A stretch of DNA of 64,000 bases, taken from assembly GCA_965230975.1 (NCBI GenBank), contig OZ246402.1, forward strand, positions 800,859-864,858. Direction: 5' to 3'. The stretch comes from an uncultured Candidatus Saccharibacteria bacterium (lineage in GTDB: Bacteria; Patescibacteriota; Dojkabacteria; J137). Below the pieces are notes generated by a model that was given only the letters and a program-made list of their open reading frames with translations, made no database searches and was not told the DNA's origin. Each line of letters starts with the position of its first letter. Position 1 is the stretch's first letter. Positions 13,676 through 55,190 of this stretch are shown here, in pieces. Position numbers and translations under genes: made by a program.

Positions 13676-13740
13676 ATCTAATTGTAATATTTCAAATAAG
13701 TTCATTTAACAAAATAGCTATAAATTAAATCTTTACTATC

Positions 13741-14475: not shown

Positions 14476-14476
14476 A

Positions 14477-15738: not shown

Positions 15739-15820
15739 ATGAGATACAACATTAGCTAAGTTCTTAGTTTAAGTATCAATATTTGTTTGGAGAGATAAAA
15801 CATCTCAAATATGAAGATAT

Positions 15821-15845
15821 AAAACTGCCAGCATTTCGCTGGCAG
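15821..15845 (-). terminator. rho-independent terminator downstream of the heliorhodopsin gene
   Basis: 8-bp GC-rich stem CTGCCAGC / GCTGGCAG with a 5-nt loop. On the minus strand it is followed by TTTTATAT. Confidence 0.6.
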
Positions 15846-15879
15846 TAATTTATCTTCAACAACTAGGATTTAGCAAATA

Positions 15880-16656: not shown

Positions 16657-16688
16657 AAATGGAATAAAAATAATAGGTAAGTACTATT

Positions 16689-16717
16689 ATGGTAGATAAA
16701 TGCGGGAGGGAAGTCAA
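16689..16717 (-). promoter_or_regulatory. promoter candidate TTGACT-17-TACCAT for the heliorhodopsin gene
   Basis: Read on the minus strand, the -10 ends 32 nt upstream of the ATG at 16656. If real, heR has its own promoter. Confidence 0.3.
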
Positions 16718-16729
16718 ACTTTAAAAGGC

Positions 16730-17305: not shown

Positions 17306-17339
17306 TTTATGGATATTAACTTGGTTGCATACTACTTTT

Positions 17340-18251: not shown

Positions 18252-18353
18252 ATCAAGTTGAGTAATATGTATACTCGATATTAACACCTTGTTACTAATT
18301 TAGACAATCAGTTTTGTCATATCTTTTGCGTAACAAAGGTGGATAATTATTAG

Positions 18354-19286
18354 TTAGGCCTCAATTTCAAATCTGGCATATATTTCTTTTTTGTAATCTT
18401 CCTCCGATTTCTCATCATCTTTAAAATATCCTTTAGATATTAAAGCCTCAGTTATTCCTTTTATTCCACTTACCCCTATATTCTTAACATTGAATTCAGG
18501 GCCTCCAAATAAAAGCTCGTGTTTAACTTCTCCTATAAAAATATAACTACCTCTCATTAAAGCATTATATGTTCTTCTAGGAAGATCTAATTCAGATATA
18601 TCTATAGAAGGGAAACTTTCACTATTATTAGCTCCTATCAAGTTATCTACTTGACTCTCATCAGGAAATCTTGCAATAAATCTTAAATACAAACCTGCTT
18701 CTATTCTAGATATATAATTTAATTCAAATAGTTGAACTACTAAATCTATAAAAACTGGGTTATTCATAATACGACTAGCAAACTGGTAATCTTCTCTGAT
18801 TGTTCTTAAGAGCTGTACTAAATCTGAAATATTTTGAACGTTTCTTGATTCTAAAAGTGCTCTTAATTCTCCACTAGGTCTAATCATTTCGATTGAATCT
18901 TGTAAGTTGCCTGGAATTCCTGATTGCATTGTGGATTGATATATAAAATCCAAAAAACTTTCAACTGTTAGTGCTGATAAGTCTTCTGAGTTATCGTAAG
19001 CATATTGTAAAAGTGCGTTTAATTTTAAATAGTTTGATTCTTCAATATCACCTTTCTGTACTAATTGTTTTATTCTAAGTAAAACTACAGAAGTTATTGC
19101 AGAGTAGGTGGATTTATCTATTGATTCTAAGTTTTGTAAGTATGCAAAATATAAACTTATTTGAATATCTTCAAAATCGTTTGCTAAGATTTGAGATATA
19201 AGAGCTAAAAGATTATCTGCATGAATCTTTACATTTTCTGGTAAATCTTCAGAACTTAAGTAATTGTTTAGAGCTGCAAATACCAT
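18354..19286 (-). CDS. alpha-CTD-like double-module protein (long paralog 1)
   Basis: ELDLPRRTYNALMRGSYIFIGEVKHELL...NIGVSGIKGITEALISKGY closely mirrors the RpoA CTD. An upstream degenerate module reads ELRALLESRNVQNISDLVQLL. Confidence 0.65.
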   Translation of the reverse strand: MVFAALNNYLSSEDLPENVKIHADNLLALISQILANDFEDIQISLYFAYLQNLESIDKSTYSAITSVVLLRIKQLVQKGDIEESNYLKLNALLQYAYDNSEDLSALTVESFLDFIYQSTMQSGIPGNLQDSIEMIRPSGELRALLESRNVQNISDLVQLLRTIREDYQFASRIMNNPVFIDLVVQLFELNYISRIEAGLYLRFIARFPDESQVDNLIGANNSESFPSIDISELDLPRRTYNALMRGSYIFIGEVKHELLFGGPEFNVKNIGVSGIKGITEALISKGYFKDDEKSEEDYKKEIYARFEIEA

Positions 19287-21159: not shown

Positions 21160-21235
21160 GGTGGTTGTAGCTCAATGGTAGAGCACTCGCCTGTGGAGCG
21201 AGGTGTTGTGGGTTCGAGCCCCACCAACTACCCCA
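21160..21235 (+). tRNA. tRNA-His (anticodon GUG) with encoded G-1 and CCA
   Basis: G-1 followed by acceptor GTGGTTG/CAACTAC, anticodon arm CTCGC-CTGTGGA-GCGAG, T arm GTGGG-TTCGAGC-CCCAC, discriminator C, CCA. Confidence 0.9.
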
Positions 21236-35182: not shown

Positions 35183-35312
35183 AGAAAGAGTGAAAACTAT
35201 ATCTGTATTTATTTATATTATATTTCAGATATATAAAATACCTAGTTAATTTCAATTCAATTAATAGTTGAGAGTAACATTTAAATTAAAACAACTCTTA
35301 AATAGTGAAAAA

Positions 35313-38300
35313 ATGCTATCAGTTAAGCATTCTTTTCTAACTTCATATAAAAATAATAAAAATAGATTCCACGTTATTATTGGTTTGGTTTTAGTTTTAA
35401 GCATTGCAGGATTAGTTTACGCAGCTACATCTACTAATAATATTGCTACCTCTTCTACAAATACAGCTACCACTGTTTCTACATTAAGAAGGGTAGTAAG
35501 AACAAGCGATGGAACATTACATGCATTTGTACAACTAGGTACAGAGACAATGACCTGTGGTGGAACACCAACAAATGGATTACTCTGGACTTATTCAACA
35601 GATAACGGGACAAATTGGACATGTGGTGGTCAGGTTTCTAACAATGTTAGTATTCTATTTCACGCTTCTGCCGTAGTAGATTCCTCAGATAATATTTATA
35701 TAGTATATTCACCTACAAATAGCGGAGCAAACAGCACTTACGATGCATATTATAGAAAACTAACAAAAGGGTCTGGGTCTACATGGACTTTAGAAAACGC
35801 ACAAACAGTATTAGATGCATCTGCATCTACTGGATTTAACTACGCAACCATAGAAATTGAAGGGACCGATAGACTCTGGGTTGCAGCAAGAAGGTTTGAT
35901 GGCACCAACTATCAAATATCAACTTACTATTCAGACGGGCTCACTACAAACCCTACCTGGGAAACATCTGAAAATGTATTAAGTGTAGCCGGTAATAGCG
36001 CCTCTTACCACATACCTGCAATGTTTAGATTCGGAAATAAAATAGGTATTGTTTATAACTCGCAACTGCCTACTGCAGTTATGAGATGGAGGTTTAGAGA
36101 AGATGGAGAATCTTTAACAAAATGGGCTTCTGAGACAATTATTAACACATTAACAGCTACTGGGCCAACATTTTCTGTAATTTCTGATAGTAATGCAAAT
36201 GCATATTTTGCTTTAAGTAGTACTACTAATGTTTTCTTTAACTATTGGAATGGTAGCGTTTGGTCTCAAAACGCAATAGTTAGTACGACTGCGCTTTCAA
36301 ACAGCTATGTATCTTTAACTACAAACGGTTCTAGCGTCAAAGTAATATATGGTGAATCTACAAATTTAGCTGCTGGTATTACAGGTCTAGGTATTTATAA
36401 ACTATCTTACAAAAATGGATATTTACCATTCTCCTCATCTGAATTTGATGTTACTGCTAGCCCTGTGGTTAGCTACCAAACCACATTTGATAAATATTGG
36501 AGTTACAATGGCACAACTTATACAAACGATACAACAGATGTTGCAAACGCAACTAGTGCAGATACACAAATGACATCTGGGATTGGGAGTATCGCATACT
36601 TTGGAAAACTTGAAAAATTTGACTCTATAGCTTGGGATATTTCTACAAGTGGAGTAACTGGTACTATAGTTTGGGAGTACTGGAACGGGAGTTCATGGAC
36701 AGCCTTAACTTTAAGAAACTCTTCTAGTCCTAACTTTACAGCAGATGGTTGGATAAACTTTGTAGACCCTGCAAACTGGGCAACAACTCAAGTTAATGCA
36801 GAAGGCACACCTTATTATTATGTTAGAGCTAGAACTAGTGTTGCATTTACAACTCAACCTGTAGGTGTTCAAATACTACCAATAACAGGCGTTTTTGGTG
36901 CTAACTTTATACAAAACAGTGTTAGTGGTAGTAGCTATGGTATTTGGACAGAAAACACTGCAAGCAGATTTGTTATTAAACAAGGATCTCTTAGCTATCC
37001 AGCAGTTACTGTAAATAATGCAACAAACACAAATGCAGTAAATAACTTGATAGGATACTCAACACTTGCTACAGCTACTCACCCAAGTACAATGAAAAAT
37101 ATATTACAAACATCTGACGGTACATTTCATGCCTTTATACAAGCTGGGAATAATGTTGCCTGTAATGACACGACTTATAATGGAGGGCTAGTATGGACAT
37201 ATTCTACAGATGAAGGAGTAAATTGGGATTGTGGTGCAGAACTTATGAGCGAAATTGTTAATGTATCTTATGCTTCTGCAGTAAAAGATAGTTCTGATAA
37301 TATTTATGTAGTTTATTCTACTTTAAATAATGCAGGTGGAGTTACAAATGACACCTACTATACAAAGCTAACAAAAGGAGTTGGATCAACCTGGAGCGTA
37401 GGCACTCCAGACTTAGTTTTAGATGCAAGTGGAACAACAGCATATACATACTCAACAGTTGAGATAGAAAATAATACAAGATTATGGCTTGCCACAAGGT
37501 ACTTTGACGGGGTTTATTATCAAATCAATACTTATTATTCATCAGACCTTTCGGGTGCTCCAAACTGGAGTGTTTCGAAAGCCCCATTAACAGCTCTTAC
37601 CGCAACTAGCACATATCTGTACCCTGCAATCGTTAGGTTTGGAAGTAATATTGGTGTAGCTTATAATGCTCAAACTAATAATCAAAGGTGGCGAGTTAGA
37701 TCTGATTCTGACCCGTTGAGCTCTTGGGGTACTGAAAACATTGTAAGCACAGAAGCAGTAGCTAGCCCAAGATTCTCAATTATATCTGATGGAAGTGATA
37801 ATGTTTACTATGGGTCCTTGGTAACATGTTCAATTTATACAACCTTTTGGAACGGTAGAACATGGGCTCCAACAACTACAGTAATAAACAACAACTGTAC
37901 TCAGGTAGCATCTGGCACTTACTTTAGCTTGTCTACTGATGGTACAAATTTAAGGTTATTTTATGGAGAGCCATTAAGTACTAGTACTGGAATTCCCCAA
38001 CATAGACTAGTTTATAGAACAGGTGTACCTCCATATAGTGCAAACAGCTTTGATTTAACTGCAACACAGGTAAATACAATGCATTCAACATTTACTAAGT
38101 ATTGGAGTTATGTTTCAAGTGTTTACCTAAACGACACTACAGATGCCGCAAGTGTGACAAGCGCAGATACTCAAATGCTAACAAACGCAGGAGATATTGC
38201 ATTTTTTGGATCCAGTTCAAAATTTGATACTGTTGCATGGGATGTTTCAACATTAGGAACTGTTGGATCCGTAATTTGGGAATATTGGAATGGCAGTGCT

Positions 38301-41300
38301 TGGGTAGAACTAACAGATTTTACATCAGTATCTAACCCATCTTTTTACAATGATGGATATATTAACTTTGTTACGCCAGTAAATTGGGCTACAACACAAG
38401 TTAATGCAGAAGGCACACCTTACTATTATGTTAGGGCTAGAGTAACAAGGTCATTTAGTGTAGCACCAGTAGGCATTCAGTTTACAACAATGCCATTAGT
38501 TTCTTGGGCAACTGCACTCCCGAATACAAATGCTAATAAAGTTGGTGCTATGTGGACTGAAAACTCAGTTTCATCTATGCCTATAAAATTTCAAAATATT
38601 AGCTTGGGTAGCAATTACACTAATTATAACGCTACGCAAACAGATGTTATTCCAACTTTAGGTTATTCAGCTAATGTCACTTCGCTGGGGCCAACAACTA
38701 TGGAAAGCTATGTTAAAACTTCAGATGGAACATACCACTCATTTGTGCAAGCTGGAAACAAGCAATTTTGTAACGATGCATCATCTACAGTAAACAATGT
38801 TGGTTTAATGTGGGTTTATTCTACCAATGGGTCGGATTGGAATTGTGGAGGTCAATTATCCGGTGATGTTACTAATTTTATGTATGCTTCCGCTACAACC
38901 GACTCTGCAGGAAACATTTATGTAGTTTATTCAGTAACCGCAAATGGAGCAAACATCGCATATAGCACTTATTATAGAAAACTAACAAAAGGGGTTGGTG
39001 CAACATGGACAATAGGAAATGCAAGTCAGGTTCTAAATGCTTCTGCAGGTGGTATTGCTTATTCATACTCTGTTATTAAAGCAGAATCAGATTCAAGATT
39101 GTGGTTAGCAACGCGTTACTTTGATGGTACAAACTATCAAATATCTGCTTACTATACTGATACTTTAGTTGATGATCCTACATGGAACCTTTCAACAATG
39201 AGTCTAAGTGTTGCGACTCCAAGCACAACCGATTTCTTTCCATCAATTGTAAAGTTTGGAAACAATATTGGAATAATTTATGCATCCCAATTCCCTGCAT
39301 CTTATCAAATGTGGAGATACAGAAGTAATTCTCAAGACCCTACTGTTTGGTCATCTCAAATGGTAGTTAATACAGAAAACTTATCTGTACCTGCTTATTC
39401 CACAGTGTCTGATAATGCAGGAAATGTTTATACAGTTTCAGTTAATGGTGCTAATGTTGTATTTAACTATTGGAATGGTAACGTTTGGTCACCCTCTGTA
39501 AACTTATCAACAACCGCCTCTACTGCTTATGCAGGTATTATTACAGATGGTTACAACGTTTGGGTTAACTATTTAGATACAACTGGGCTTATCTCATCTG
39601 GACTTGGATTAAGAAAATTTAGCTACAGAAAAGGAATACCTCCTTACACAGCTACAGAGTGGGAGGCTGCTACAAATTTGGTGACTAATCATGGATTTTT
39701 TGATAAATACTGGAGTTACTTTAGCTCTGTTTACTTAAATGACACAACCGATGTTACTTCTGTTGCAACAGCAGATACTCAAATGCTAAGAAATATAGGA
39801 GATATTGCATATTTTGGGAAATTAGAAAAATTTGATGCAGTATCTTGGGTTTTAAGCACAGCAGGTGTTGGGGGGAATGTTGTTTGGGAATACTATAATG
39901 GGAGTGTTTGGGCACCAATAGAGGATTTTGAGCATAACTTGAATCCTAATTTTATTGGTGCAACAACTGGAATTATATCTTTCAGTCCTGCAAGTGATTG
40001 GCAAACGACCACGGTTAACAGCGAACCCACACCTTATTACTATGTTAGAGCAAGGGTAATTGCAAATTACTCAACAACCCCTGTTGCATCACAAATTGTT
40101 ACAATTCCAAACTTAAATAGCTCTGCATTGCTACCTACTTTAGATGGAAACAATATGTCAGGGCTTTGGACAGAAAACTCGGTAGCTCCTATTCGAATAA
40201 GAAAATACGATATTACATTATCTACAGAAACACCTAACACAGCATCTGCATCTGATTTAATGCCTACCTTAAACTCGGCAACTTGGTATTCTTCAACAAA
40301 CCTAACTAATCAATCATCTACTCAAAGAAGTATTGTAAAAACATCTGATGGCACTATCCATTCATTTGTTTACACTGCTAACTCGCCAGCTTGTGGTGGC
40401 AACTCAACAAGCCAGGCAAATTCAGGTGGGTTAGTTTGGATGACCTCAAGTGATGAAGGTGTAACTTGGGATTGTAAATCTACTTTGTGGTCTGACCCGA
40501 CAATGGGGTACTACGCATCTGCAACAGTAGACAGCAACGACAATATTTATGTTGTTTATTCTCAAGCTGCAAATGGTGGGAGTGTTAATTACGATATTTA
40601 TTATAGAATGATTACAAAAACTGGACCTGGGACTTGGAGCATGGAACCTCAACAAATACTACTTGATTCAATTACTGCTAATACTGGGTACACTTATGCA
40701 ACAATAGAGGTAGAAGGTTCTAATAGACTTTGGGTAGCATTTAGAAATTATAATAATCCAAACTATCAAGTCTCTGTATATTATTCTAGCGCACTAACTT
40801 CTGAACCAGTTTGGACACTTTCAAGCTTAGCATTAGAAAGTGCAGGCACATCTACAAGTTACCATTATCCAACCATTGTACGTTATGGAAGTAATATAGG
40901 AGTTATTTATAGCAATGAAATTGGAGGTGTTTCTACCAGATGGAGATCTAGAGCCGACACAGATGGTTTAACAACATGGGGAACAGAAGCAACAATTATG
41001 GCATCTGCTTCAACAGGGCCATTATTTTCTGCAGTTGGTAGTGATGCTGGTGAAATCTATTTAAGTGTTGGCTCTGCTGCAACTGTTTACTTTACATCAT
41101 GGAATGGAAGTTCTTGGTCAAGTAGAGCAACATTATCTTCAACTGCTATTACAAATGGATTTACAAATGTAAGTATGGTTGGAACAACTGCATATGTTTA
41201 CTATACCAATGCAAGTGGTTTGAGTGCCGGATTACCAGGTAATAGAAAATTAGTATATAAAAGAGGTGTTGCCCCATACTTAGATGCAAACTTTGATGTA

Positions 41301-44300
41301 TCAGAAACAAGTATTGTTTCTTACCACTCACTATTTGATAAAGTTTGGAGTTATGTATCTTCAGTTTACGCAAACGAAACTACAGATGCTTCAAATACAA
41401 CAAGTGCAGATACTCAAATGGTAAGCCAAATAGGGGATATTATATATTTAGGTAAAACTTCTAAATTTGATAATATCTCTTGGGACTTATCTACATTGGG
41501 TACAAATGGAATAATAAGATGGGAGTATTATAATGGTGCTTCTTGGAAAGCAATAAATAAATATTTAGGTGTATTAACTCCATCATTCACAGGAGATGGT
41601 GCAATTTCATTTGTTCCGGCTCAAGACTGGGCACAAACAACAATTAACGGAGAGGGAACATCTTATTATTACGTAAGAGGGGTAGTAACAAGAGCATTTA
41701 GCGTTGTACCAATTGGAGTTCAGTTTGCAAGTATTCCATTACTGTCTCAATTTACAAGCATTGCTAAAGCTAACAACATTTACTACTCATGGACAGAAAA
41801 CTCTGCATCTAACTACAGAGTTAGATTTTCAGCATACATATTTAATGTTGCTCCAAACACACCAACCTCATTGGGCGCTAGTGCAGTAGTAGATGGATCT
41901 CCAACAAAAAACAATCAACCCGAATTTATATTTACAACAAGTGATCTTAACTTAGGAGATACTTCAACATATACTATTCAAATTGATAACGATAGCGATT
42001 TTTCATCTCCAGTAGTAGATTACACTTCTGCATTTACATTAAATGGAGTTAGAGGCTTTGCAGTAGGGCAAGCAGTTGGTAGTGGAATTTACACTACAGG
42101 TTCGCAAGGGCAAACATTGACAGACGGAGATTATTACTGGAGAGTTAAAGCAAGTGACTTAGCAGGTTTAGAATCCGGGTTTGCAGTAGCAAACAGCGGA
42201 AGTGTTGCGTTTAAAATAGATACTGCAAACCCGGCAACAAATGCAAGCAGTATTTTAATGTTAAAAACCGCTGGTGGACCTGGAGTTAACTCTAATGGTT
42301 GGACAAATAACGCATCTCCTTATTTTTCTTGGACACCTGGTGTAGATAACGTAGGTGGTTCTGGAATTTTTGGTTATTGTGTTTATTTAGGAACAGATTC
42401 TAATGGTAATCCAGAAACTAGCAAAGGCTTGTTAGGAACATCACCTGCAACTTTGGTAGATTCAACTTGTCAATTTATAACTACAACTACATCAATTGAT
42501 TTTACCAACGCTAACTTAAAAGGTGGAACATGGCTTACAACATCTTCTAGCCCATATTATATAAACATTAAAGCTATAGATATTGTTGGTAATATATATA
42601 CAACTTCAAGTGCGCAATTTCAGTTTAGGTTTGATAACGTTGCACCAACTAACGTAGCTTTCATAAGCACCGCTGGTGGAACATTTAATAATGTAGCAGA
42701 TATGAGCTTTTCGTGGCCAACAGCAGGTTTAAACACATCATCAGATGCAACATCTGGAGTATTGGGTTGGCAATATGCAATTAATATAACAAGTGGTAGT
42801 TGGCAAGGCACAACAGATAGTACAGAACTAGACGAGAGATATATACCAACAAGTGATAGCAATTACAGCTTAACAAATGTTCAAGATGCAGGTTCTATTG
42901 TGACTGGTAGCAATACAATTTACTTTAGAACAATTGACCAGGCGGGGAATTATTCATCTGAGGGCACAGTTAGAACAGGTGTATTGCAGTTTGGTGGAGC
43001 TGCACCAATGTTCCCACCACTTTCTCAAGTAACAGTAACACCATCCGTGGGAGTATCAAATAATTACGAATTATCTTGGCCAGAAGCAATGTCTGGATCT
43101 GGTGGAGATATTTCAAATTATTACTATATGATAAATATAACGCCACCAACGGTTTTAAGTACTATAACAACAAACCCTGCAACATTTATAAACAACAACT
43201 TAAGTTTAGGAGTTACTGCAAGATCTTTACCAAACGTAAATAGAGGAACGAATACCGTATATGTTGTAGCAGTAGACGAAGATGGACATTATTCACCATC
43301 TAATTATATTACCGGAACATTTGAATTGAATTCAACAGAGCCGGACAATCCAACACAACTTACAGCATCAGATGCATCTATAAAATCTGAAAACAGATGG
43401 ATGGTTACATTAACATGGATTAAACCAGCATACGAAGGTGCAGGAAACTTAACATACTTGGTACATAGATCTTTAGATGGAGTAAGCTTTAGCTTGGTAG
43501 GTACAACTACAAGTTTGTCTTATGTAGATAACCCAGATGAAAGTAGACTATATTATTACAAAGTTTATGCAAAAGATGGAGCTAACCAAACATCGTCCGG
43601 TACAAATGCTGTTTCTGAAACGCCAACAGGTCGGTGGACAGTACCTCCTACACTAGACAATGAGCCAGAAGTTACAAATATTACTACTAAGAAAGCAAAA
43701 ATATCTTGGACAACATCAAGAAAAGCAGATTCTAAAGTAGCTTATGGTACAGAAAGTGGAGTTTACTTCCCGGTTGAACCTAGTACATCTGATTTAACCC
43801 CGGCACACGAAATAAATTTAAATGGTTTACAACCAAGTACTCAATACTATTATATTGCAAGATGGACAGACGAAGATGGTAATACAGGTTCGTCAACAGA
43901 ATATAGCTTTGTAACACAACCTGCCCCAAGTGTTAAAGATGTAGTTGCAAGTAACGTTGGTTTAACATCTGCTATATTAAGATACACAACCTTAGGTGCA
44001 AGCAAAGTAAGGATATTTTATGGAACAACAACATCTTTTGGAGGTTTGAAAGAGGTTTCTACTTCTACTAGCGAAACAGTTCAAACTACAGAAATAACAG
44101 GATTGTTAGATGGTACAAAATACTATTATAGAATAGATACTTTAGATGAAGAATCAGCTCAATACGAAGGAACAATTTTAGACTTTACAACACTACCTAG
44201 ACCAAAAATTAATAATGTTAGAGTACAGCAAGTTAGAAATACCGCACAGTCAACTGTTTTAATAAGCTGGCAAACAAATACGGAAGTATCTTCTATAGTT

Positions 44301-44876
44301 ACATACTATCCGGAAAATCAACCAGGACTTTCTACAGATGAAGTAAATGTCACCTTAACAAAAGGGGATCACAGTATGATAATTAGAGGTTTGCTACCTC
44401 AAACAAATTACAATATTATAGTTAAGGGAAGAGACAGAATGGGAAACGAAGCAGTATCTGATGTTCAAAGATTAACAACTGCAACAGATACTAGACCGCC
44501 GGTATTAAGCAACATTAAAATTGAAGGCGCAATTTCAAAGTTATCAAGTAGTTCTGATAATACTCAAGTTGCTCAAATAGTGGTTAGTTGGAATACCGAT
44601 GAGCCAGCTACATCTCAAGTTGAGTTTGGAGAAGGCACAGGTACAACTTATTCTCAAAGAACACAAGAAGATACTAATTTAACAGTAAATCATTTGGTGG
44701 TAATAACAGGTCTTACACCTTCAAAGGTTTACCACTTAAGAATACTAGCTAAAGATAAAGCAGAGAATTTAGGTAGATCTGTAGATACAGTTACAATTAC
44801 GCCAAAAGGAACGGATAATGCATTGGATTTGGTTTTATCTAGTTTGCAACAAACCTTTGGATTTTTAAATAATTAA
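35313..44876 (+). CDS. giant surface protein: signal anchor, four ~536-aa BNR/Asp-box-containing tandem repeats, C-terminal Ig/Fn3-like domain series
   Basis: I prefer the ATG at 35313 over TTG 35268. The repeat landmark TSDGT starts at 35502, 37110, 38718 and 40341. Each repeat has an Asp-box SxDxGxxW (YSTDNGTNW and variants). Four clear Fn3-like units fall after ~43620. Confidence 0.85.
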   Translation: MLSVKHSFLTSYKNNKNRFHVIIGLVLVLSIAGLVYAATSTNNIATSSTNTATTVSTLRRVVRTSDGTLHAFVQLGTETMTCGGTPTNGLLWTYSTDNGTNWTCGGQVSNNVSILFHASAVVDSSDNIYIVYSPTNSGANSTYDAYYRKLTKGSGSTWTLENAQTVLDASASTGFNYATIEIEGTDRLWVAARRFDGTNYQISTYYSDGLTTNPTWETSENVLSVAGNSASYHIPAMFRFGNKIGIVYNSQLPTAVMRWRFREDGESLTKWASETIINTLTATGPTFSVISDSNANAYFALSSTTNVFFNYWNGSVWSQNAIVSTTALSNSYVSLTTNGSSVKVIYGESTNLAAGITGLGIYKLSYKNGYLPFSSSEFDVTASPVVSYQTTFDKYWSYNGTTYTNDTTDVANATSADTQMTSGIGSIAYFGKLEKFDSIAWDISTSGVTGTIVWEYWNGSSWTALTLRNSSSPNFTADGWINFVDPANWATTQVNAEGTPYYYVRARTSVAFTTQPVGVQILPITGVFGANFIQNSVSGSSYGIWTENTASRFVIKQGSLSYPAVTVNNATNTNAVNNLIGYSTLATATHPSTMKNILQTSDGTFHAFIQAGNNVACNDTTYNGGLVWTYSTDEGVNWDCGAELMSEIVNVSYASAVKDSSDNIYVVYSTLNNAGGVTNDTYYTKLTKGVGSTWSVGTPDLVLDASGTTAYTYSTVEIENNTRLWLATRYFDGVYYQINTYYSSDLSGAPNWSVSKAPLTALTATSTYLYPAIVRFGSNIGVAYNAQTNNQRWRVRSDSDPLSSWGTENIVSTEAVASPRFSIISDGSDNVYYGSLVTCSIYTTFWNGRTWAPTTTVINNNCTQVASGTYFSLSTDGTNLRLFYGEPLSTSTGIPQHRLVYRTGVPPYSANSFDLTATQVNTMHSTFTKYWSYVSSVYLNDTTDAASVTSADTQMLTNAGDIAFFGSSSKFDTVAWDVSTLGTVGSVIWEYWNGSAWVELTDFTSVSNPSFYNDGYINFVTPVNWATTQVNAEGTPYYYVRARVTRSFSVAPVGIQFTTMPLVSWATALPNTNANKVGAMWTENSVSSMPIKFQNISLGSNYTNYNATQTDVIPTLGYSANVTSLGPTTMESYVKTSDGTYHSFVQAGNKQFCNDASSTVNNVGLMWVYSTNGSDWNCGGQLSGDVTNFMYASATTDSAGNIYVVYSVTANGANIAYSTYYRKLTKGVGATWTIGNASQVLNASAGGIAYSYSVIKAESDSRLWLATRYFDGTNYQISAYYTDTLVDDPTWNLSTMSLSVATPSTTDFFPSIVKFGNNIGIIYASQFPASYQMWRYRSNSQDPTVWSSQMVVNTENLSVPAYSTVSDNAGNVYTVSVNGANVVFNYWNGNVWSPSVNLSTTASTAYAGIITDGYNVWVNYLDTTGLISSGLGLRKFSYRKGIPPYTATEWEAATNLVTNHGFFDKYWSYFSSVYLNDTTDVTSVATADTQMLRNIGDIAYFGKLEKFDAVSWVLSTAGVGGNVVWEYYNGSVWAPIEDFEHNLNPNFIGATTGIISFSPASDWQTTTVNSEPTPYYYVRARVIANYSTTPVASQIVTIPNLNSSALLPTLDGNNMSGLWTENSVAPIRIRKYDITLSTETPNTASASDLMPTLNSATWYSSTNLTNQSSTQRSIVKTSDGTIHSFVYTANSPACGGNSTSQANSGGLVWMTSSDEGVTWDCKSTLWSDPTMGYYASATVDSNDNIYVVYSQAANGGSVNYDIYYRMITKTGPGTWSMEPQQILLDSITANTGYTYATIEVEGSNRLWVAFRNYNNPNYQVSVYYSSALTSEPVWTLSSLALESAGTSTSYHYPTIVRYGSNIGVIYSNEIGGVSTRWRSRADTDGLTTWGTEATIMASASTGPLFSAVGSDAGEIYLSVGSAATVYFTSWNGSSWSSRATLSSTAITNGFTNVSMVGTTAYVYYTNASGLSAGLPGNRKLVYKRGVAPYLDANFDVSETSIVSYHSLFDKVWSYVSSVYANETTDASNTTSADTQMVSQIGDIIYLGKTSKFDNISWDLSTLGTNGIIRWEYYNGASWKAINKYLGVLTPSFTGDGAISFVPAQDWAQTTINGEGTSYYYVRGVVTRAFSVVPIGVQFASIPLLSQFTSIAKANNIYYSWTENSASNYRVRFSAYIFNVAPNTPTSLGASAVVDGSPTKNNQPEFIFTTSDLNLGDTSTYTIQIDNDSDFSSPVVDYTSAFTLNGVRGFAVGQAVGSGIYTTGSQGQTLTDGDYYWRVKASDLAGLESGFAVANSGSVAFKIDTANPATNASSILMLKTAGGPGVNSNGWTNNASPYFSWTPGVDNVGGSGIFGYCVYLGTDSNGNPETSKGLLGTSPATLVDSTCQFITTTTSIDFTNANLKGGTWLTTSSSPYYINIKAIDIVGNIYTTSSAQFQFRFDNVAPTNVAFISTAGGTFNNVADMSFSWPTAGLNTSSDATSGVLGWQYAINITSGSWQGTTDSTELDERYIPTSDSNYSLTNVQDAGSIVTGSNTIYFRTIDQAGNYSSEGTVRTGVLQFGGAAPMFPPLSQVTVTPSVGVSNNYELSWPEAMSGSGGDISNYYYMINITPPTVLSTITTNPATFINNNLSLGVTARSLPNVNRGTNTVYVVAVDEDGHYSPSNYITGTFELNSTEPDNPTQLTASDASIKSENRWMVTLTWIKPAYEGAGNLTYLVHRSLDGVSFSLVGTTTSLSYVDNPDESRLYYYKVYAKDGANQTSSGTNAVSETPTGRWTVPPTLDNEPEVTNITTKKAKISWTTSRKADSKVAYGTESGVYFPVEPSTSDLTPAHEINLNGLQPSTQYYYIARWTDEDGNTGSSTEYSFVTQPAPSVKDVVASNVGLTSAILRYTTLGASKVRIFYGTTTSFGGLKEVSTSTSETVQTTEITGLLDGTKYYYRIDTLDEESAQYEGTILDFTTLPRPKINNVRVQQVRNTAQSTVLISWQTNTEVSSIVTYYPENQPGLSTDEVNVTLTKGDHSMIIRGLLPQTNYNIIVKGRDRMGNEAVSDVQRLTTATDTRPPVLSNIKIEGAISKLSSSSDNTQVAQIVVSWNTDEPATSQVEFGEGTGTTYSQRTQEDTNLTVNHLVVITGLTPSKVYHLRILAKDKAENLGRSVDTVTITPKGTDNALDLVLSSLQQTFGFLNN

Positions 44877-44877
44877 A

Positions 44878-47838
44878 ATGGGTGACCCAATAATAAAAAT
44901 ACAAAACATTAATAAAGTATTCACAGTTGGTGATCAAGATTTGCATATTTTAAAAGATATATCTGTAGATATTGAGAGAGACGATTTCGCAATCATTTTG
45001 GGGCCATCAGGATGCGGAAAATCCACTTTATTACATACAATTATTGGATTAGAAGAGCCTACATCTGGTAGTTTAATATTTAGTGGGGTAGATATTTACA
45101 AAGGTAAAACTGATGATGATAGAAGTGTTTTTAGAAAAACACATATTGGAATGATTTACCAACAACCAAACTGGGTTAAAGCCCTACATGTTTTAGATAA
45201 TGTAGCGTTACCTTTAGAAATGCTTGGAGAAGATAAAGAATCTGCCAGAAAAAAAGCATTGTCTGCATTAGGATCTGTATCTATGGATGAGTGGGCATAT
45301 CACTTACCAACATCTCTATCTTCTGGTCAACAACAAAGAATTGCACTTGCCCGGGCTTTAATTACAGACCCAGAAGTAATAATTGCAGATGAGCCAACAG
45401 GAAACCTTGACTACGAAGCTGGACAAGCATTAATGAATCTTTTAAAGATTTACAACACTCACTTTAAGAAAACAGTATTAATGGTAACTCACGACTTGGA
45501 ATACCTATCTTTTGCCAAAACTGCCATTAAACTTTTTGATGGTAAATTAGTTGGTGTTTATCAAGATGGAGATAAAGATGAACTGCAACATAATACTAAG
45601 ACTAAAAAACTACCTGAAATGGCACTACCAGATATTGCAGTAAATACTGCAGCTATTGCTAAGGCTCAAGATGAAAAATCACAAGCAAATGGTGTTGGGA
45701 AACTTAACTCAAGTAAAGTTGGACAGGATGACAAGCAAGATTTAGCAGACTTTAATAAAGGTTTCTTTCAAAAGCAATCTTTAGAAAAAGTTGCTACAAG
45801 TGGACCTAAAATTAAGCCAAAAACTCCTTTAGCACAAAAGATTATAAGGATTATAAAAAACATACCTTCTAATATAAAAGGTGCCTTAATACTTAGTAAA
45901 CAGATCTTTGTAATAGTATTACTTTTAACTATTTACTTAATAAAGCTAATCATAGCTACAGTAGTAAAAAGATTAATTCCAGGTTTCATTATAAATGTTA
46001 TTGGAAAGCCATTAATGCAAATAGATCTATTAGTAACAAAATGGATTGATCCAAGCTTTTCAAAAACAATTCCGAAAATTGAATTAATAAGTATTGCAGT
46101 TAAGAACATGCTTGCAAAAAAAACTCGAACTGCAGTTACAATTGGTGGTATGGCTGTAGGTATTGCTGCAATTGTATTTTTGGTTTCACTGGGTTATGGA
46201 TTACAAGATGTAGTAATTAGTAGAGTAGCCCGGTTAGACGAGATGAAACAAGCAGACATATCTCCTCAAACAGGAGGTAATGTAAGTTTAAATGACGAAA
46301 CAATTGCTAACTTTTCTAGAATACCTAACGTATCAATGTTAATGCCGTTAATTTCCGTGGTAGGAAAAATCTCTTACCAAAACTCTGTTACAGATGTTGC
46401 AACATATGGTGTTACATCTGATTATTTAAAACAGTCTGCTGTAAAACCATCTTTCGGAACAATCTTTGAAAGCAATGAAACAGTTGTAAGTGTTAATAAA
46501 AGTGATTTAGTTGATCAAGGCAAGGTTGCAGGACTAAGTACAGAAAATGCAATTGTAAAAGTTGGTGAAAAAATTTCAGATGTTACGTTTAACATAACAA
46601 CTAATGTTTGGGCAACAGTACGCTCTGGCCCTGACTTAAAATCAGAGATTTTAGGTTTTACTAAAAGAGTAGAGGGTAATTTAACAGGCGAAGAGGTTTG
46701 GGGAGTAGAAGACAATTGGGTTAGAACAAAATATTCATTATGGAAAGAACAATCATGCTCAACTATTTATAATTTAGACTGCGCAGATGGGAAGTATTTA
46801 AAAATAAAAGACTCTCTTGGAACTCAAATACAGCAAAGTGGATATGTTTATAATGCTGATTTACAAATTTCTAATCGAAAATTAAAACCAGATAATTCAA
46901 CCGCCAATGTGTTGGGGCTATCAACAGATAGCAATGTCAAAGTTAATGGTCAAGTATTAGGTGTTTCAGATGAGCAATGGGTAGAACTACCATCCGAATC
47001 TTCAACTTCATCTTTGGAGCAAGTTACAACCATAGAGCTTTCACCTCTTGCAAAAAAAGAAGCTGTTGTAAATGTAGCAATGCTTAAAGTACTGGGAATT
47101 GAACCAAGCGAAGCAGTTGGGAAATCTTTTGCAGTATCTTATGTAGTAGTTGGTAATTTATTAAATCAAGATAACGAAAAAGTCGAATCTGCAATTTCAG
47201 ATTACAAGATTATTGGTGTTGTTCCAGAAGATAAAACTCCTTACTTTTATGTACCATTTATTGATTTAAGATCTTTAGGTATTGCTAGTTATTCTCAGTT
47301 AAAATTAGTTGTTAATGACTCTGCAAATTTAGCTGGTGTTAGAAACCAAGTAGAGAGCTTAGGTTATAATACTGTCTCTGTTTCCGATACAGTGGCTCAA
47401 ATAGAATCCTTATTTTCAACATTAAGAACGTTACTCGCATTGGTAGGGTCTGTTGCATTAGCTGTTGCATCTTTAGGAATGTTTAATACATTAACGGTAT
47501 CTTTATTAGAAAGAACTAGAGAGGTAGGGTTTTTAAGAGCTATAGGTATGACATCTTCAGAAGTTCAAGAGCTATTCTTAACAGAGTCCTTAACAATGAT
47601 GTTCTTTGGTGGGTTTGGTGGAATTTTTGCAGGGTTAGTATTTGGGAAACTAGCTAGTTTAATAGTTTCTTTGATAGCCGCCAGAGATAATGCTGGATTC
47701 TTAGATATATCAAGACTGCCTTTATCATTCTTATTAATAGTATCTGCCTTAGCATTATTGGTTGGTATTGCAACTGGAATTTACCCAGCAAGAAGAGCAA
47801 AAAAGATATCTGCACTAAATGCCTTAAGATACGAATAA
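44878..47838 (+). CDS. fused MacB-type ABC exporter (ATPase + FtsX permease) with enlarged extracytoplasmic domain
   Basis: Walker A GPSGCGKST, signature LSSGQQQR, Walker B IADEPTGNLD. This is followed by a TM helix and a ~430-aa external region including an SH3b-like stretch (WATVRSGPDLKSEILGF...WVRTKY). The FtsX C-terminus ends ALNALRYE. The ATG lies 1 nt after the giant gene's stop. Confidence 0.85.
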   Translation: MGDPIIKIQNINKVFTVGDQDLHILKDISVDIERDDFAIILGPSGCGKSTLLHTIIGLEEPTSGSLIFSGVDIYKGKTDDDRSVFRKTHIGMIYQQPNWVKALHVLDNVALPLEMLGEDKESARKKALSALGSVSMDEWAYHLPTSLSSGQQQRIALARALITDPEVIIADEPTGNLDYEAGQALMNLLKIYNTHFKKTVLMVTHDLEYLSFAKTAIKLFDGKLVGVYQDGDKDELQHNTKTKKLPEMALPDIAVNTAAIAKAQDEKSQANGVGKLNSSKVGQDDKQDLADFNKGFFQKQSLEKVATSGPKIKPKTPLAQKIIRIIKNIPSNIKGALILSKQIFVIVLLLTIYLIKLIIATVVKRLIPGFIINVIGKPLMQIDLLVTKWIDPSFSKTIPKIELISIAVKNMLAKKTRTAVTIGGMAVGIAAIVFLVSLGYGLQDVVISRVARLDEMKQADISPQTGGNVSLNDETIANFSRIPNVSMLMPLISVVGKISYQNSVTDVATYGVTSDYLKQSAVKPSFGTIFESNETVVSVNKSDLVDQGKVAGLSTENAIVKVGEKISDVTFNITTNVWATVRSGPDLKSEILGFTKRVEGNLTGEEVWGVEDNWVRTKYSLWKEQSCSTIYNLDCADGKYLKIKDSLGTQIQQSGYVYNADLQISNRKLKPDNSTANVLGLSTDSNVKVNGQVLGVSDEQWVELPSESSTSSLEQVTTIELSPLAKKEAVVNVAMLKVLGIEPSEAVGKSFAVSYVVVGNLLNQDNEKVESAISDYKIIGVVPEDKTPYFYVPFIDLRSLGIASYSQLKLVVNDSANLAGVRNQVESLGYNTVSVSDTVAQIESLFSTLRTLLALVGSVALAVASLGMFNTLTVSLLERTREVGFLRAIGMTSSEVQELFLTESLTMMFFGGFGGIFAGLVFGKLASLIVSLIAARDNAGFLDISRLPLSFLLIVSALALLVGIATGIYPARRAKKISALNALRYE

Positions 47839-51284: not shown

Positions 51285-54200
51285 TTACTTTTGCTTTTTC
51301 TTAAATACTCCCAAGTATATTGCTATTAACAATAAAACTATAAACAAAACAGCACATAGCAATGGAACAAACCAACTATTTGTTTGAGTTTCAGTTGTAG
51401 ATTCTCCTAAAACATTTCCACCCGCATTTTCATTGCTTTGATTTGACTCATCTGTACCATTTTCATTTGATTCTTCTTCTAAAGTGTTGTCAGTTTGGTT
51501 TTGTTCTTCTTGGCTATTGCTACCTTGATTTGAGTTACCTTGCCAACTTGCACCTATACCCAAAACCGCACCATTATTAACAACAATCACAACACCTGCA
51601 GATGCAGTATCTGAATTTGAATCTGTAACATCTAACCTACAATAGTAACTACCTGGAGTTGTTGGGACAGTTGCAGTATTAGTTAAACCTGTTGCAGTTA
51701 AAGTACCACTTCCAGAACAAGCACCAGACCAAACATAGCTAAAGTTTGCATCTCCCGAAAGAACATTACCTTGCAAAGTAACTAATGTTCCTTGAGATAC
51801 GTTTGTTGATGGTGTTGCAAAAATAATTACAGATGGAAGTGTGTTATTTGCACTTACAGTTATACTAGAAGTTGCAGTATCTCCATCAGAATCTGTGACT
51901 AGCACATTACAATTATAAGATGTTGCACTTGGTGTATTTAAAACTACACTTGCTGTGTTACCACTACAAGCACCACTCCATAAATAAGAAACTATTGTAT
52001 TACCAGCCAAAACATTGCCCGAAATATCTGCAATTAAAGTAACTGGTGTACCTACAAGAACAGATGTAGACGGGTTTGCATTAATAGATACAGATGGCAA
52101 AGTGTTATTAATAACTAGTTGCGAATTAGCAGTAGTTGTATTACCTGCTTCATCTGTAATACTACATTCAATATCTAATGTTTTTGTTAGGTTAGGTAAG
52201 TCAACATTTAAATCCCCGGGGCTGAACACAGAAGGGGTACATGTTAATGACAAGTTTTCCGGATTATTTAAAACAAAATCTTCAATAGCTGGTGCAGAAT
52301 CTCCTTCATTTATTGTTAAGGTTTGTAATTCTAAAATTGGGAAAACCTTATCAATATTAGTAACAGTAGCAATTGCACTACCTAAGTTACCTGCCAAATC
52401 TGAAAATGTAAATGTGAATGTTCCATTATCATCGAATGTGAACATGTTAGATGCTCCATTGTTTGTAATTGTAACAGTCTCACTTGTACTTAAAGTTGCT
52501 ACCACACTTGTGTTTGTAGGTGTAGTTATTGAGTAAGAAATACTACCAGTTGGGGCTACTGTATCTAAAGTTACATTCCAAATCTCGCTCCAATTACTTT
52601 CATTTCCCAATTGATCTATTGCTTTTACCTGCCAATACCATGTTCCATCTGGTGCACCAACAGAAAGTATTTGAGGTAAATTTAAAGGATTTTGAGCCGG
52701 GTTAGAACTTGATGTGTTTACCCATACACCAGAATTCAAAACCCCACCAACTTGGCTTGAACTTAAAGATGCTTGAAAAACATATGTAATTGGTCCTGGA
52801 TTATTATCTGTAGAAGAATCCCAATTAAAGTAAAAATTATTGGTATTTAAATACGAGTTATGTGGCAATCCATTTGTAGGTACAGATGGAGCAGTAGTAT
52901 CTAACACAAATTCATATTGAGTTGTATTGCCTGCTACATCAAATACTACAAGAGTATTTGTTCCCTCAATAGCTCCAAAAACTCCGGGTTTTACATTATT
53001 TAAATCACTCCAAGGGTTATTACTTAAATCTTTTACAACTCCATTAATGCTTACCTTATCTATTTTATTTGCATCATAAAGTTTAAAACTAACAATCTTA
53101 AACATATTTCCATTACCAATAGAAAATGGTGTATATGAATTACCCCATGCACTTCCTTTAACATAAAAACTAGGATTAGTTATATCTATAGTAAAGTCAA
53201 AAGTCTTGGTGGTAGATATATTTCCAGCTTTATCTTGAGCATTATATTTAAGTGTGTAGTTGCCTGCTGGTAAAGGTAAATTACCTGCCATAACAGTTGC
53301 TAAATCAATGGTGTGTGTCCCACTTAAACCTGAAATACTTACACTTGTGCTTCTATACAATGTACCATTTTTGTAAATATTACCAACTATCCTATCTAAA
53401 GCCAAATTATCTGTTGAATCAATAACTAAATCCATTGTTTGATTAAATACATTAGAAGAGGGTAGTGGGCTGGTAAGCGTTACTGTTGGCTTTGTATTAT
53501 CTATATAAAACTGTCTTAAAGCTTGGCCCCAAGTAGTATTGGAGTCTAAAAATTGTGCCGAGAATACATATAATCCATCTGGTGTTAATGTTGTATTGTA
53601 CTCACAAGATTCATCTAAAGATGTACCAAGTAAATCTGCACCAGGTGCTTCTTGGCAAACAAAAACTAAGTTACCTGAACTCTCAAACGCATCTTTCCAA
53701 TACCTTAAATAGTAACTACCCATTCCATAATCATCTGTAGCTAAAGCTCTACTTGTTATTGTGCCTTTTACATAAGAATTTTCTAAGGGTGTAGGGCTTA
53801 CAATATTCACAACAGGTGCTTCGTTACCAAACATATTTACATTCATAGCCAAGGTGAAAGGACTCCAATCTGTATCCCGTCTTAAAATACCAACGCCGCT
53901 TGCACCTGAATCTGTATAAAAACCTGCATGTGTTGTATTCCAAAATACTACACCTGGTTCTGTATCTGTACCAGTTGTAGGGCTTAATGTTGCTAAACTA
54001 ACATTTAAAGAATCATATGGACCAGGCATTCCAATTGGCGAGTATCCATGTACACTTGTGTTATATGCCAAAGTTATAATTACGTTATTTGGTAAAGTTA
54101 AATTATCTAAAGAAAAATCATAAGAGATATTAAATGCATATCCATTTGTACATACACCTCTTACTGCATCAAACCATTTACCTCCAAAAGGTACATTTGT

Positions 54201-55190
54201 TGAAGGATCTGTGCAGTTAACAGCGTCATAAGATGGTCTAAAAGGGATATTTGCATTTATAGTCTTGGTTGTAATTAAACTACCTACTTTATTTGTTCCA
54301 CTTGAACTATCTACATTGTAAATGTTTAAAGTAATAGGATGAGTAAAAGAGCTACCAGGTGTAGTTACACAAGCTTCTGTAGAAGTTCTATTAGGAACCC
54401 ATGCAGAGCCACTCCAAGAAAAGTCATTTTCACAAGACCAGTTTGTTAAACTAATTTCTATAGTGCTTAGTTTTCTAAAAGAACCTGCCAAAGTAATTTG
54501 ATCACCAAATTCTTTTGTTGAAGTAGCAGCATAACCCAAGCTTGAAAATGCACCAGGGTAAACTGATGGAATACTATTATAAGTAACTACAAAAACTGTA
54601 AAGTGGTTACCAGCGAAAGTTATTGTATTATTACCAATATTTGCATTAACATCTTTAAAACTAATATTATCTTCTGAATATTTAAGTTCTGCATTATTTC
54701 CAAAAGGATTAGGCAAAGTCATTACATATTCAAATGTGTAATTTTGCATGTTTGTATTAAACTCGTAGCCTTTAGAAAAAATACCTTCTACCATTAATTC
54801 AACTTCTTTAATACTAAAAAAATTATCGCCCTGTGGTAGTTTTGTAAAAGTTATATTTACCTGATTGTTATTATAAAAAGTGTAAAGATAGTTTAATTGA
54901 ATATTACTAAAAGTTTGTGTGCCATTCGAATCAATGGAATATTGAGGCTGAATTGGTTTTGAAGCCTCGTTTAAGCCTTTTCCAGGCTGATCAACTTGTA
55001 CATTTTCTGTACTATCAACCACAGCTGGTTCTTCTTGCTGATTGTATGTTGCTGGGTAAGACGGGATATTCTCATCTGTACCACTATATTCTTCTGCAAA
55101 TAAAGGTGTTACGGGGTAAACTAAAAAGAAGGCTAAATAACTCAGTAAGCAAAAAATCTTGAGCCGGGATTTTTGAGTAATTATTCTCAT
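51285..55190 (-). CDS. 1,301-aa cell-surface protein with Ig/Fn3/PKD-like domains and C-terminal TM anchor
   Basis: Signal peptide and multiple beta-rich modules, including two PKD-like ~88-aa repeats (LPSV-x-I-x-A-x-PST...WSGACSG...TDS-x-x-DTA). An acidic N/Q/E/S linker is followed by a hydrophobic helix and a KKKQK tail. Confidence 0.8.
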   Translation of the reverse strand: MRIITQKSRLKIFCLLSYLAFFLVYPVTPLFAEEYSGTDENIPSYPATYNQQEEPAVVDSTENVQVDQPGKGLNEASKPIQPQYSIDSNGTQTFSNIQLNYLYTFYNNNQVNITFTKLPQGDNFFSIKEVELMVEGIFSKGYEFNTNMQNYTFEYVMTLPNPFGNNAELKYSEDNISFKDVNANIGNNTITFAGNHFTVFVVTYNSIPSVYPGAFSSLGYAATSTKEFGDQITLAGSFRKLSTIEISLTNWSCENDFSWSGSAWVPNRTSTEACVTTPGSSFTHPITLNIYNVDSSSGTNKVGSLITTKTINANIPFRPSYDAVNCTDPSTNVPFGGKWFDAVRGVCTNGYAFNISYDFSLDNLTLPNNVIITLAYNTSVHGYSPIGMPGPYDSLNVSLATLSPTTGTDTEPGVVFWNTTHAGFYTDSGASGVGILRRDTDWSPFTLAMNVNMFGNEAPVVNIVSPTPLENSYVKGTITSRALATDDYGMGSYYLRYWKDAFESSGNLVFVCQEAPGADLLGTSLDESCEYNTTLTPDGLYVFSAQFLDSNTTWGQALRQFYIDNTKPTVTLTSPLPSSNVFNQTMDLVIDSTDNLALDRIVGNIYKNGTLYRSTSVSISGLSGTHTIDLATVMAGNLPLPAGNYTLKYNAQDKAGNISTTKTFDFTIDITNPSFYVKGSAWGNSYTPFSIGNGNMFKIVSFKLYDANKIDKVSINGVVKDLSNNPWSDLNNVKPGVFGAIEGTNTLVVFDVAGNTTQYEFVLDTTAPSVPTNGLPHNSYLNTNNFYFNWDSSTDNNPGPITYVFQASLSSSQVGGVLNSGVWVNTSSSNPAQNPLNLPQILSVGAPDGTWYWQVKAIDQLGNESNWSEIWNVTLDTVAPTGSISYSITTPTNTSVVATLSTSETVTITNNGASNMFTFDDNGTFTFTFSDLAGNLGSAIATVTNIDKVFPILELQTLTINEGDSAPAIEDFVLNNPENLSLTCTPSVFSPGDLNVDLPNLTKTLDIECSITDEAGNTTTANSQLVINNTLPSVSINANPSTSVLVGTPVTLIADISGNVLAGNTIVSYLWSGACSGNTASVVLNTPSATSYNCNVLVTDSDGDTATSSITVSANNTLPSVIIFATPSTNVSQGTLVTLQGNVLSGDANFSYVWSGACSGSGTLTATGLTNTATVPTTPGSYYCRLDVTDSNSDTASAGVVIVVNNGAVLGIGASWQGNSNQGSNSQEEQNQTDNTLEEESNENGTDESNQSNENAGGNVLGESTTETQTNSWFVPLLCAVLFIVLLLIAIYLGVFKKKQK

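Follow-up and report, generated by a model that had tools for sequence, protein, structure and literature searches.

The 64,000-nucleotide stretch of DNA analysed here (hereafter the window), which covers positions 800,859 to 864,858 of contig OZ246402.1 from an uncultured Candidatus Saccharibacteria bacterium (assembly GCA_965230975.1), carries a giant gene at 35313–44876 whose product contains four consecutive copies of a composite unit of about 536 amino acid residues. Each unit is predicted to consist of a six-bladed β-propeller and a second domain, a jelly-roll of about 150 residues, which we call module B. The four units have diverged strongly from one another and are shared with orthologues from other Patescibacteria, and the array is ancient. 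On balance, we favour the interpretation that the product serves an episymbiotic bacterium of the candidate phyla radiation (CPR) as a surface protein for multivalent, non-catalytic binding, a function that we infer. The proposed layout is as follows. A signal peptide is followed by the four units and then by a stalk of about 980 residues resembling immunoglobulin and fibronectin type III (Ig/Fn3) domains, the whole forming a giant surface protein that would be exported through the Sec pathway of a Patescibacteria (Microgenomates-type CPR) bacterium.

Four diverged units and their history

The giant gene was delimited from the list of open reading frames (ORFs) and its translation. Read from the ATG at 35313 on the + strand, the form recorded in public assemblies, it encodes 3,187 residues; an in-frame TTG at 35268 gives a longer form of 3,202 residues (ORF 35268–44876, +). 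No other ORF of at least 150 residues overlaps the region of the giant gene on either strand. The four units, all on the + strand, are arranged as follows. R1 occupies 35478–37085 (residues 71–606, 536 aa), with the Asp-box STDNGTNW at 35595–35618 and module B at about 36477–36905. R2 occupies 37086–38693 (residues 607–1142, 536 aa), with the propeller at about 37086–38039, the Asp-box at 37203–37226, module B at about 38082–38513 and a closing hairpin, marked by the motif WTEN, at about 38538–38603. R3 occupies 38694–40316 (residues 1143–1683, 541 aa), with a degenerate Asp-box, STNGSDW, at 38820–38840 and module B at about 39690–40127. R4 occupies 40317–41939 (residues 1684–2224, 541 aa), with the Asp-box SSDEGVTW at 40446–40469 and module B at about 41325–41759.

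The units align end to end, with identities of 40–46% in amino acids and 52–56% in nucleotides. An earlier, sequence-only reading of this DNA had described four tandem repeats that had diverged over most of their DNA, and both points are borne out by these identities and by the unit lengths of 536, 536, 541 and 541 residues within one ORF. The landmarks it gave are exact; that is, the codons for TSDGT start at 35502, 37110, 38718 and 40341, with spacings of 1608, 1608 and 1623 nt. The motif YYYVR starts at 36813, 38421, 40035 and 41664. Other details need adjustment. The near-exact period of 1,608 nt holds from R1 to R2, but small indels shift it afterwards (1605/1608, 1608–1617 and 1623–1635). 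The ungapped nucleotide autocorrelation is maximal at lag 1608 (0.372, against 0.293 ± 0.008 at other in-frame lags, about 10 SD). One Asp-box per repeat is correct for R1, R2 and R4, but the box of R3 is one residue short and mismatches the pattern S-x-D-x-G-x-x-W. The motif GTPYYYVRAR, said to be strictly conserved, is present in R1 and R2 but becomes PTPYYYVRAR in R3 and GTSYYYVRGV in R4, and only the core YYYVR is strictly conserved. Tandem Repeats Finder did not detect the array, as it handles periods of up to 500 and the divergence between copies is too great. No paralogous unit was found elsewhere in the window with a hidden Markov model (HMM) of the unit.

The sequence-only reading had also taken short blocks of nearly identical DNA as a sign of ongoing homogenisation. 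The block in question is a 38-nt patch in R1, at 36789–36826 (+), which differs from R2 38397–38434 at a single nucleotide (37 of 38 nt match) and codes for QVNAEGTPYYYVR. On this explanation, gene conversion or unequal recombination would still be homogenising the repeats, or else the array would be an assembly artefact of uncertain copy number; we give it almost no credence, on the following grounds. Where two units share a degenerate amino acid, the same codon is used in 0.45–0.52 of cases, against 0.478 expected from codon usage alone. The proportion of synonymous differences between units (pS, by the method of Nei and Gojobori, NG86) is 0.60–0.68, and the corresponding distance, dS, is 1.2–1.8, near saturation. 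The significance of the patch was assessed by shuffling the same-codon flags along each pair of units, with P values that are not corrected for the six pairs. The patch amounts to 8 identical codons in a row (P = 0.30), or to a window with 13 of 15 same-codon sites (P = 0.16). The lowest nominal value, P = 0.026, belongs to a run of 12 same-codon sites between R1 and R3, which before correction speaks for homogenisation; among six pairs and two statistics, uncorrected, it is unremarkable. We ascribe the similarity of the patch to conservation of QVNAEGTPYYYVR at the protein level together with AT-biased codon usage. This is the alternative that the earlier reading itself offered, selection on those blocks. 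A per-repeat dN/dS, suggested as a check, was computed and supplied the dS values, but the ratio itself is uninformative because dS is near saturation.

That the array was created by the assembler is unlikely, since repeats with about 55% DNA identity cannot be collapsed or expanded in assembly. The identical 3,187-residue protein is present on three contigs, among them a 1,193,217-bp NCBI contig and the Logan assembly of SRR12762303, which may share the same source reads.

The family to which the units belong was found by exhaustive HMM search, and a word-indexed protein search severely under-reports it (5–9 matches). The orthologue P0011 has 3,194 residues, is 55% identical to the window protein end to end, and has four complete units and the same tail. 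Four complete units are also found in orthologues from a Daviesbacteria metagenome-assembled genome (MAG; L003, 3,217 residues) and a Woesebacteria MAG (L008, 3,227 residues), and three complete units with a truncated first unit in an unclassified MAG (L004). Orthologue identity is 47–64% across the whole length. Each window unit is closest to the unit at the same position in P0011, with identities of 0.55, 0.51, 0.51 and 0.53 for R1 to R4, against 0.41–0.46 among the window units. In neighbour-joining (NJ) analyses the window units are monophyletic in 0 of 100 and 0 of 200 bootstraps, and the same-position pairs of window and P0011 units have bootstrap values of 95% for R1, 28% for R2, 30% for R3 and 83% for R4. 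An extended NJ tree of 27 units gives position clades at 52% for position 1, 0% for positions 2 and 3, and 13% for position 4. This larger tree is noisy and lacks clean position clades, so support for positional orthology is weak in the case of R2 and R3. The repeat history proposed here rests on best-match identities, the window–P0011 pairings and the non-monophyly of the window units, not on a resolved repeat phylogeny.

From the four shared units and the same-position best matches it follows that the duplication is old. Comparison of the unit sequences robustly indicates that the four-fold duplication predates the divergence of the orthologue-bearing lineages, Daviesbacteria- and Woesebacteria-labelled ones among them. 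The claim of ongoing homogenisation, in turn, does not stand: codon identity lies at the codon-usage expectation, synonymous sites are saturated, the patch is non-significant, the window repeats are never monophyletic, and the orthologues carry the four-unit array too. In the window protein the units are not closer to one another than to orthologous units, and there is no synonymous excess. The lack of concerted evolution in the window copy, and of any evidence for it in the DNA patches, is thus a robust indication from the sequence comparisons. It would follow that the repeat count should be stable and that the four units are probably functionally differentiated. Since the duplication each unit has followed its own course, with purifying selection acting on a structural core, and the similar DNA blocks owe nothing to gene conversion. 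Identity among the repeats of one protein is 0.44 in the window and 0.48–0.61 in the orthologues, and by this measure the window lineage is the fastest-evolving.

The repeats of L004 (8966–17782) are 56–61% identical to one another and group by genome with 60% bootstrap, the one orthologue pattern that would be expected under homogenisation. They may reflect a lineage-specific re-duplication or conversion, unlike those of the window.

The named sources of the family are Daviesbacteria, Woesebacteria and WWE3, which places it in Patescibacteria; a few records under other bin labels are suspected to be mis-binned. A pattern-limited scan of 185,579 species genomes gave at least 11 confirmed relatives at no fewer than 10 loci. 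Family members have from one to at least four full units, combined with M23 peptidase domains, LamG/DUF2341, Ig/Fn3 arrays and C-terminal transmembrane anchors, and such partners would fit a role in cell-surface interaction. In P0014 (residues ~600–1480), a unit is split by an insert of about 700–900 residues made of another short repeat and flanked on either side by unit-HMM matches.

The predicted propeller and the catalytic question

An AlphaFold2 model of R2 (m9f9a588c7386, based on an alignment of 21 sequences) has a mean predicted local distance difference test (pLDDT) score of 85.4 and a predicted template modelling (pTM) score of 0.84. Residues 1–313 of the model contain 24 β-strands, which we read as six four-stranded blades. 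The remainder comprises an all-β domain at about 335–480, a hairpin at 485–506 with the invariant WTEN motif, and a disordered linker. In the model, module B appears to emerge from the propeller chain, which then returns as the WTEN hairpin, an insertion topology. Against the PDB, Foldseek ranks sialidases and a pseudaminidase highest (2ber, 2w38, 1eut and others, E 5e-10 to 1e-7); next come lectin propellers (PHL, PLL2 and AAL), and after them enzymes of glycoside hydrolase (GH) families GH43 and GH32 and polysaccharide lyase (PL) family PL25. When the template modelling (TM) score is normalised to the target, the lectin propellers score 0.55–0.61 and the sialidases 0.31–0.50. The sialidase-like propeller that had been proposed for each repeat is well matched by the predicted six-bladed fold, with its pLDDT of 85.4 and sialidases at the top of the Foldseek results.

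Single window units have no match in Pfam, PHROGs, NCBIfam or the PDB sequences, and a profile of the four repeats found only a spurious match in the PDB sequences (E 2.1). A profile of 23 propeller sequences gave weak PDB matches to GH62 (E 0.005) and to the sialidase 1wcs_A (E 0.19). Among 23 diverse propellers of the family, 12 match Pfam BNR_2 (PF13088) at E <= 1, with 5e-8 as the best value, and no window unit does; the BNR_2-matching propellers align to the window units at 29–44% identity. Given these 12 matches and the Foldseek matches to sialidases, we place the modelled propeller in the Asp-box/sialidase-clan fold, as a divergent member.

The canonical Asp-box falls between assigned strands 3 and 4 of blade 1 in the predicted structure, the position expected for Asp-boxes (PMC2716378). 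When sequence is compared with predicted strands, only remnants with a W are left at the corresponding turn of the other blades (GSTW, APNW, LSSW and GRTW). The residues that are invariant or nearly so across the 23 propellers are mainly W, Y, G, P and a pair of Cys flanking the Asp-box, with a single Arg, R205. TSDGT is preceded by R in R1, by Q in R2 and by K in R3 and R4, and R132 and R138 vary from one family member to another. That is, neither the FRIP motif nor the Arg triad is conserved across the 23 family propellers, judged by sequence conservation, and for this reason we do not file the units as sialidases; by the same residues, they would lack a catalytic site.

Bacterial sialidases of family GH33, such as the 68-kDa enzyme of Micromonospora viridifaciens (1eut/2ber), likewise combine a six-bladed Asp-box propeller with a β-sandwich or jelly-roll domain. 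In contrast to the window units, with one canonical Asp-box per unit, they have three to five. The window units, unlike GH33 sialidases, are without a conserved FRIP motif and Arg triad and have no direct sequence match in Pfam, NCBIfam or the PDB; moreover, module B apparently lies inside the propeller chain, whereas the corresponding domain of sialidases is appended, and the units stand four in tandem.

These likenesses raise the alternative of a tandem enzyme, in which every propeller would be catalytically active, as a glycoside hydrolase or lyase, with module B as its carbohydrate-binding module (CBM); the protein would then be a four-fold machine for degrading a host or environmental surface polysaccharide. 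The nearest structures are indeed mostly those of enzymes (sialidases, pseudaminidase, GH43, GH32 and PL25), family members match BNR_2, the weak profile match is to GH62, the M. viridifaciens sialidase shares the propeller and jelly-roll architecture, and an M23 peptidoglycan hydrolase domain is present in a number of paralogues. We nevertheless consider a tandem enzyme unlikely, with the Arg triad missing and R205 as the only near-invariant Arg, no window unit matching a glycosidase by sequence in Pfam, NCBIfam or the PDB, and lectin propellers exceeding sialidases in target-normalised TM score.

Module B and its relatives in virions

Modelled alone (m5e86c096426b, 41-sequence alignment), module B is a jelly-roll with a pLDDT of 89.7. 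In an hmmsearch of the PDB sequences, the module-B profile matches residues 522–636 of 9efk_M, the orf18 product of Legionella phage LME-1, with E 7.3e-17; weaker matches are to insertions in the BaseplateJ-like chain 9gtp_1K (E 7.8e-4) and in Afp11, 6rao_I (E 0.06). Foldseek gives a concordant result, as follows. 9efk_M is matched with a query-normalised TM score (TMq) of 0.73, a root-mean-square deviation (rmsd) of 2.1 Å and 24% identity, 7b5h_AH, a baseplate protein of the Anabaena contractile injection system (CIS), likewise at an insertion, with E 9e-4 and TMq 0.50, and viral models in BFVD with TMq 0.74–0.75. Similarity of the propellers alone was considered as the reason for the match of the whole unit to 9efk_M and was rejected, since the module-B profile places the homology in residues 522–636.

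The sequence-only reading had described a second, binding module in each repeat and had named discoidin-like CBMs as structures to compare. A β-sandwich module is present, but its likeness to CBM32 is weak, and the closest relatives are domains of phage and CIS virions. Foldseek matches to the jelly-rolls of CBM32, CBM6 and GH29-C reach E 7e-3 to 0.1 with TMq 0.35–0.5 and 8–15% identity, and none of the 41 module-B sequences has a CBM or discoidin (F5_F8_type_C) match in Pfam. The CBM32, discoidin and CBM6 domains, among them the chitosan-binding DD1/DD2, the AlyQ CBM32 and the CBM32s of C. perfringens, are therefore jelly-rolls of similar size with weak likeness to module B. No model in the Pfam copy searched covers module B; that copy is without PF27730, which is listed for P0004.

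The T7-like tail of LME-1 has a hexameric nozzle (PMC12407071), and because chain M is present in six copies, orf18 would be the nozzle protein. In phage T7, gp12 has a jelly-roll, the "fiber dock", which comes after the propeller, faces outwards and attaches to the tail fibre (PMC6702177). By analogy, the T7 fiber dock may be the equivalent of module B. The LME-1 domain and module B are homologous by both profile and structure, and each is propeller-attached or surface-exposed. They differ in setting: module B occurs four times in a cellular surface protein, and the LME-1 domain belongs to a phage virion protein. The attached propellers also differ, the one here being six-bladed and BNR-like, and that of the nozzle seven-bladed and without sequence relation.

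Module B is carried by 2,754 cluster representatives (exhaustive search, E <= 1e-3). Many of these carriers are phage-like, with the look of tail or virion proteins, and have 2–19 copies, up to 19 matched stretches occurring in one protein. P0079 (4,023 residues) is among the carriers, and P0004 combines module B with the PHROG "major tail protein with Ig-like domain". In L012 (candidate division WWE3, 9848–18895), module B is found elsewhere between the halves of the propeller, in the unit-HMM order 3–169, 335–470, 177–298, and also in arrays, an arrangement that suggests a mobile insertion domain. Judged from this distribution, we propose that module B is a mobile, surface-exposed jelly-roll common to virion proteins and CPR surface proteins.

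The tail, the transporter gene and the proposed role

The C-terminal part of the protein, about 978 residues encoded by 41940–44876 (+), is an Ig/Fn3-like array with Pfam matches to fn3, Pur_ac_phosph_N and PhoD_N, in agreement with the Ig/Fn3-like domains that had been read after the repeats. The tail is 60–64% identical to those of the orthologues, above the value for the repeats (47–53%), and ends in DNALDLVLSSLQQTFGFLNN. The last ~25 residues (window 44790–44873), which include this end, are kept in P0011 as DNALNLVIGNLQQAFGFLGGL and could serve as an anchoring or partner-binding peptide. At the other end, 35313–35423 (+) is predicted by eye to encode a Sec signal peptide or N-terminal anchor, MLSVKHSFLTSYKNNKNRFHVIIGLVLVLSIAGLVYA followed by ATST, the residues just before ATST being LVLVLSIAGLVYA. 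P0011 has a similar pattern by eye, LVLVLGVVWA before ATSS. The putative signal peptide, together with the family-invariant Cys pair flanking the Asp-box, points to an extracytoplasmic location, and the surface or secreted binding role suggested earlier is plausible in its light.

The next gene, at 44878–47838 (+), begins 1 nt past the stop codon of the giant gene and encodes a fused ATP-binding cassette (ABC) ATPase and MacB/FtsX-type permease of 986 residues, with Pfam matches to ABC_tran, MacB_PCD and FtsX; its best NCBIfam match is MacB, below cutoff. The extracytoplasmic domain of this protein is unusually large, about 430 residues. The adjacency of the two genes is kept in all three orthologous loci checked (L003, L004 and L008), and no ABC gene is called in the 8 kb downstream of the two-unit paralogue P0007 (L002). 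Since the genes flanking the pair are on the opposite strand, the two genes form a self-contained unit. No gene for a membrane fusion protein (MFP) or TolC adjoins the pair. We infer a partnership between the giant protein and the MacB-type transporter.

Giant repeat adhesins offer a further comparison. Their tandem repeats are nearly identical, and the RTX (repeats-in-toxin) adhesins secreted by the type 1 secretion system (T1SS) have a C-terminal T1SS signal, RTX repeats and an HlyB-type ABC transporter with an MFP and an outer-membrane factor. Like these proteins, the window protein is very long, secreted and modular, with tandem units, an Ig/Fn3 stalk and an adjacent ABC gene. In contrast to giant adhesin repeats, its repeats are only 40–46% identical and show no concerted evolution; and unlike T1SS adhesins, it carries a putative signal peptide at its N-terminus, recognised by eye, and an ABC partner of MacB/FtsX type, not of HlyB type. 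A Pfam search of the giant protein found no RTX or other adhesin repeats.

Other features of the window are as follows. The G+C content is 0.37 at 36001–44000, within the giant gene, and 0.29–0.33 in the flanks; the higher value probably reflects a composition rich in Gly, Ala, Thr and Ser. A promoter scan upstream of the giant gene found sites no more numerous than in shuffled sequences. A second large ORF, at 51285–55190 (−), encodes 1,301 residues with Big_3_2, PKD-like and Big_13 Ig-like domains and has no match to the unit HMM; the product is probably a further surface protein that bears no relation to the repeat unit. Four tRNA genes (6858–6929, 9120–9191, 9276–9348 and 21161–21232) are the sole Rfam matches in the window at the gathering threshold.

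Several points weigh against a multivalent binding protein of the kind that we favour. The conserved polar residues D11, H15, D68, N72, R205 and E492 could make up an active site that has escaped recognition. Bootstrap support for positional orthology is good for R1 and R4 alone, R2 and R3 having values of 28 and 30. Since the jelly-roll that follows the nozzle propeller of T7 docks a tail fibre, module B may bind protein rather than glycan. Finally, a core envelope role accounts for a stable and fairly conserved orthologue no less well than does a host-specific adhesin.

This last point leads to another alternative, rather unlikely in our estimate. The giant protein might be a core envelope or structural protein, such as an S-layer-like protein or wall scaffold, whose assembly or regulation would fall to the neighbouring MacB/FtsX-type transporter, much as FtsEX controls extracytoplasmic partners, and host binding would not be its primary function. 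The four-unit architecture and the synteny with the ABC gene are stable across Daviesbacteria-labelled, Woesebacteria-labelled and unclassified genomes, identity is 47–64% over the full length, the tail is the most conserved part, and the ABC linkage tracks the tail, as the two-unit P0007 illustrates. Against this, the pattern-limited genome scan gave at least 11 relatives at no fewer than 10 loci among 185,579 species genomes, and the protein does not look universal in CPR. Further, copy number and partners such as M23 and LamG vary widely, as is typical of interaction proteins, and the relatives of module B are exposed virion decorations.

We therefore return to the proposal of a non-catalytic binding protein and its possible mode of action. 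Four propeller faces and four module-B domains, placed in series, would bind glycan or protein on the surface of a host cell or particle. The Ig/Fn3 tail and the MacB/FtsX-type ABC protein, presumably co-transcribed, would provide anchoring, export or mechanical coupling. It is tempting to go further and regard the pair as a two-gene attachment device of Microgenomates episymbionts, in which the units recognise the host and the tail couples them to a mechanotransmission ATPase, by whose action the adhesin is anchored, extended or actuated; this is a long shot.

Giant modular surface proteins, Asp-box propellers and jelly-roll binding modules are already known kinds. What is new, or at least undescribed in the literature searched, is the composite unit of about 536 residues and its fixed array of four in a conserved orthologue from Microgenomates, together with the homology of module B to a phage-nozzle domain and, more weakly, to CIS-baseplate domains, and the pairing with a MacB-type transporter. 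The unit in the window protein, which lies outside all Pfam and NCBIfam models, is now defined in a form that can be expressed and tested. A widespread, uncharacterised jelly-roll becomes tied to solved structures of a phage nozzle and, less closely, of CIS baseplates. A conserved gene pair with a MacB-type transporter is added, and a misleading inference of homogenisation is removed.

Little is known of how ultrasmall CPR/Patescibacteria recognise their hosts and stay attached to them, and PMC11623550 states this for Saccharibacteria. The giant gene takes up about 0.8% of a 1.19-Mb genome, and its architecture is fixed in Daviesbacteria- and Woesebacteria-labelled genomes. If the two-gene attachment device were real, phage modules for host recognition or docking would have been exapted for parasitism of one bacterium on another, and type VII ABC transporters would have a new job.

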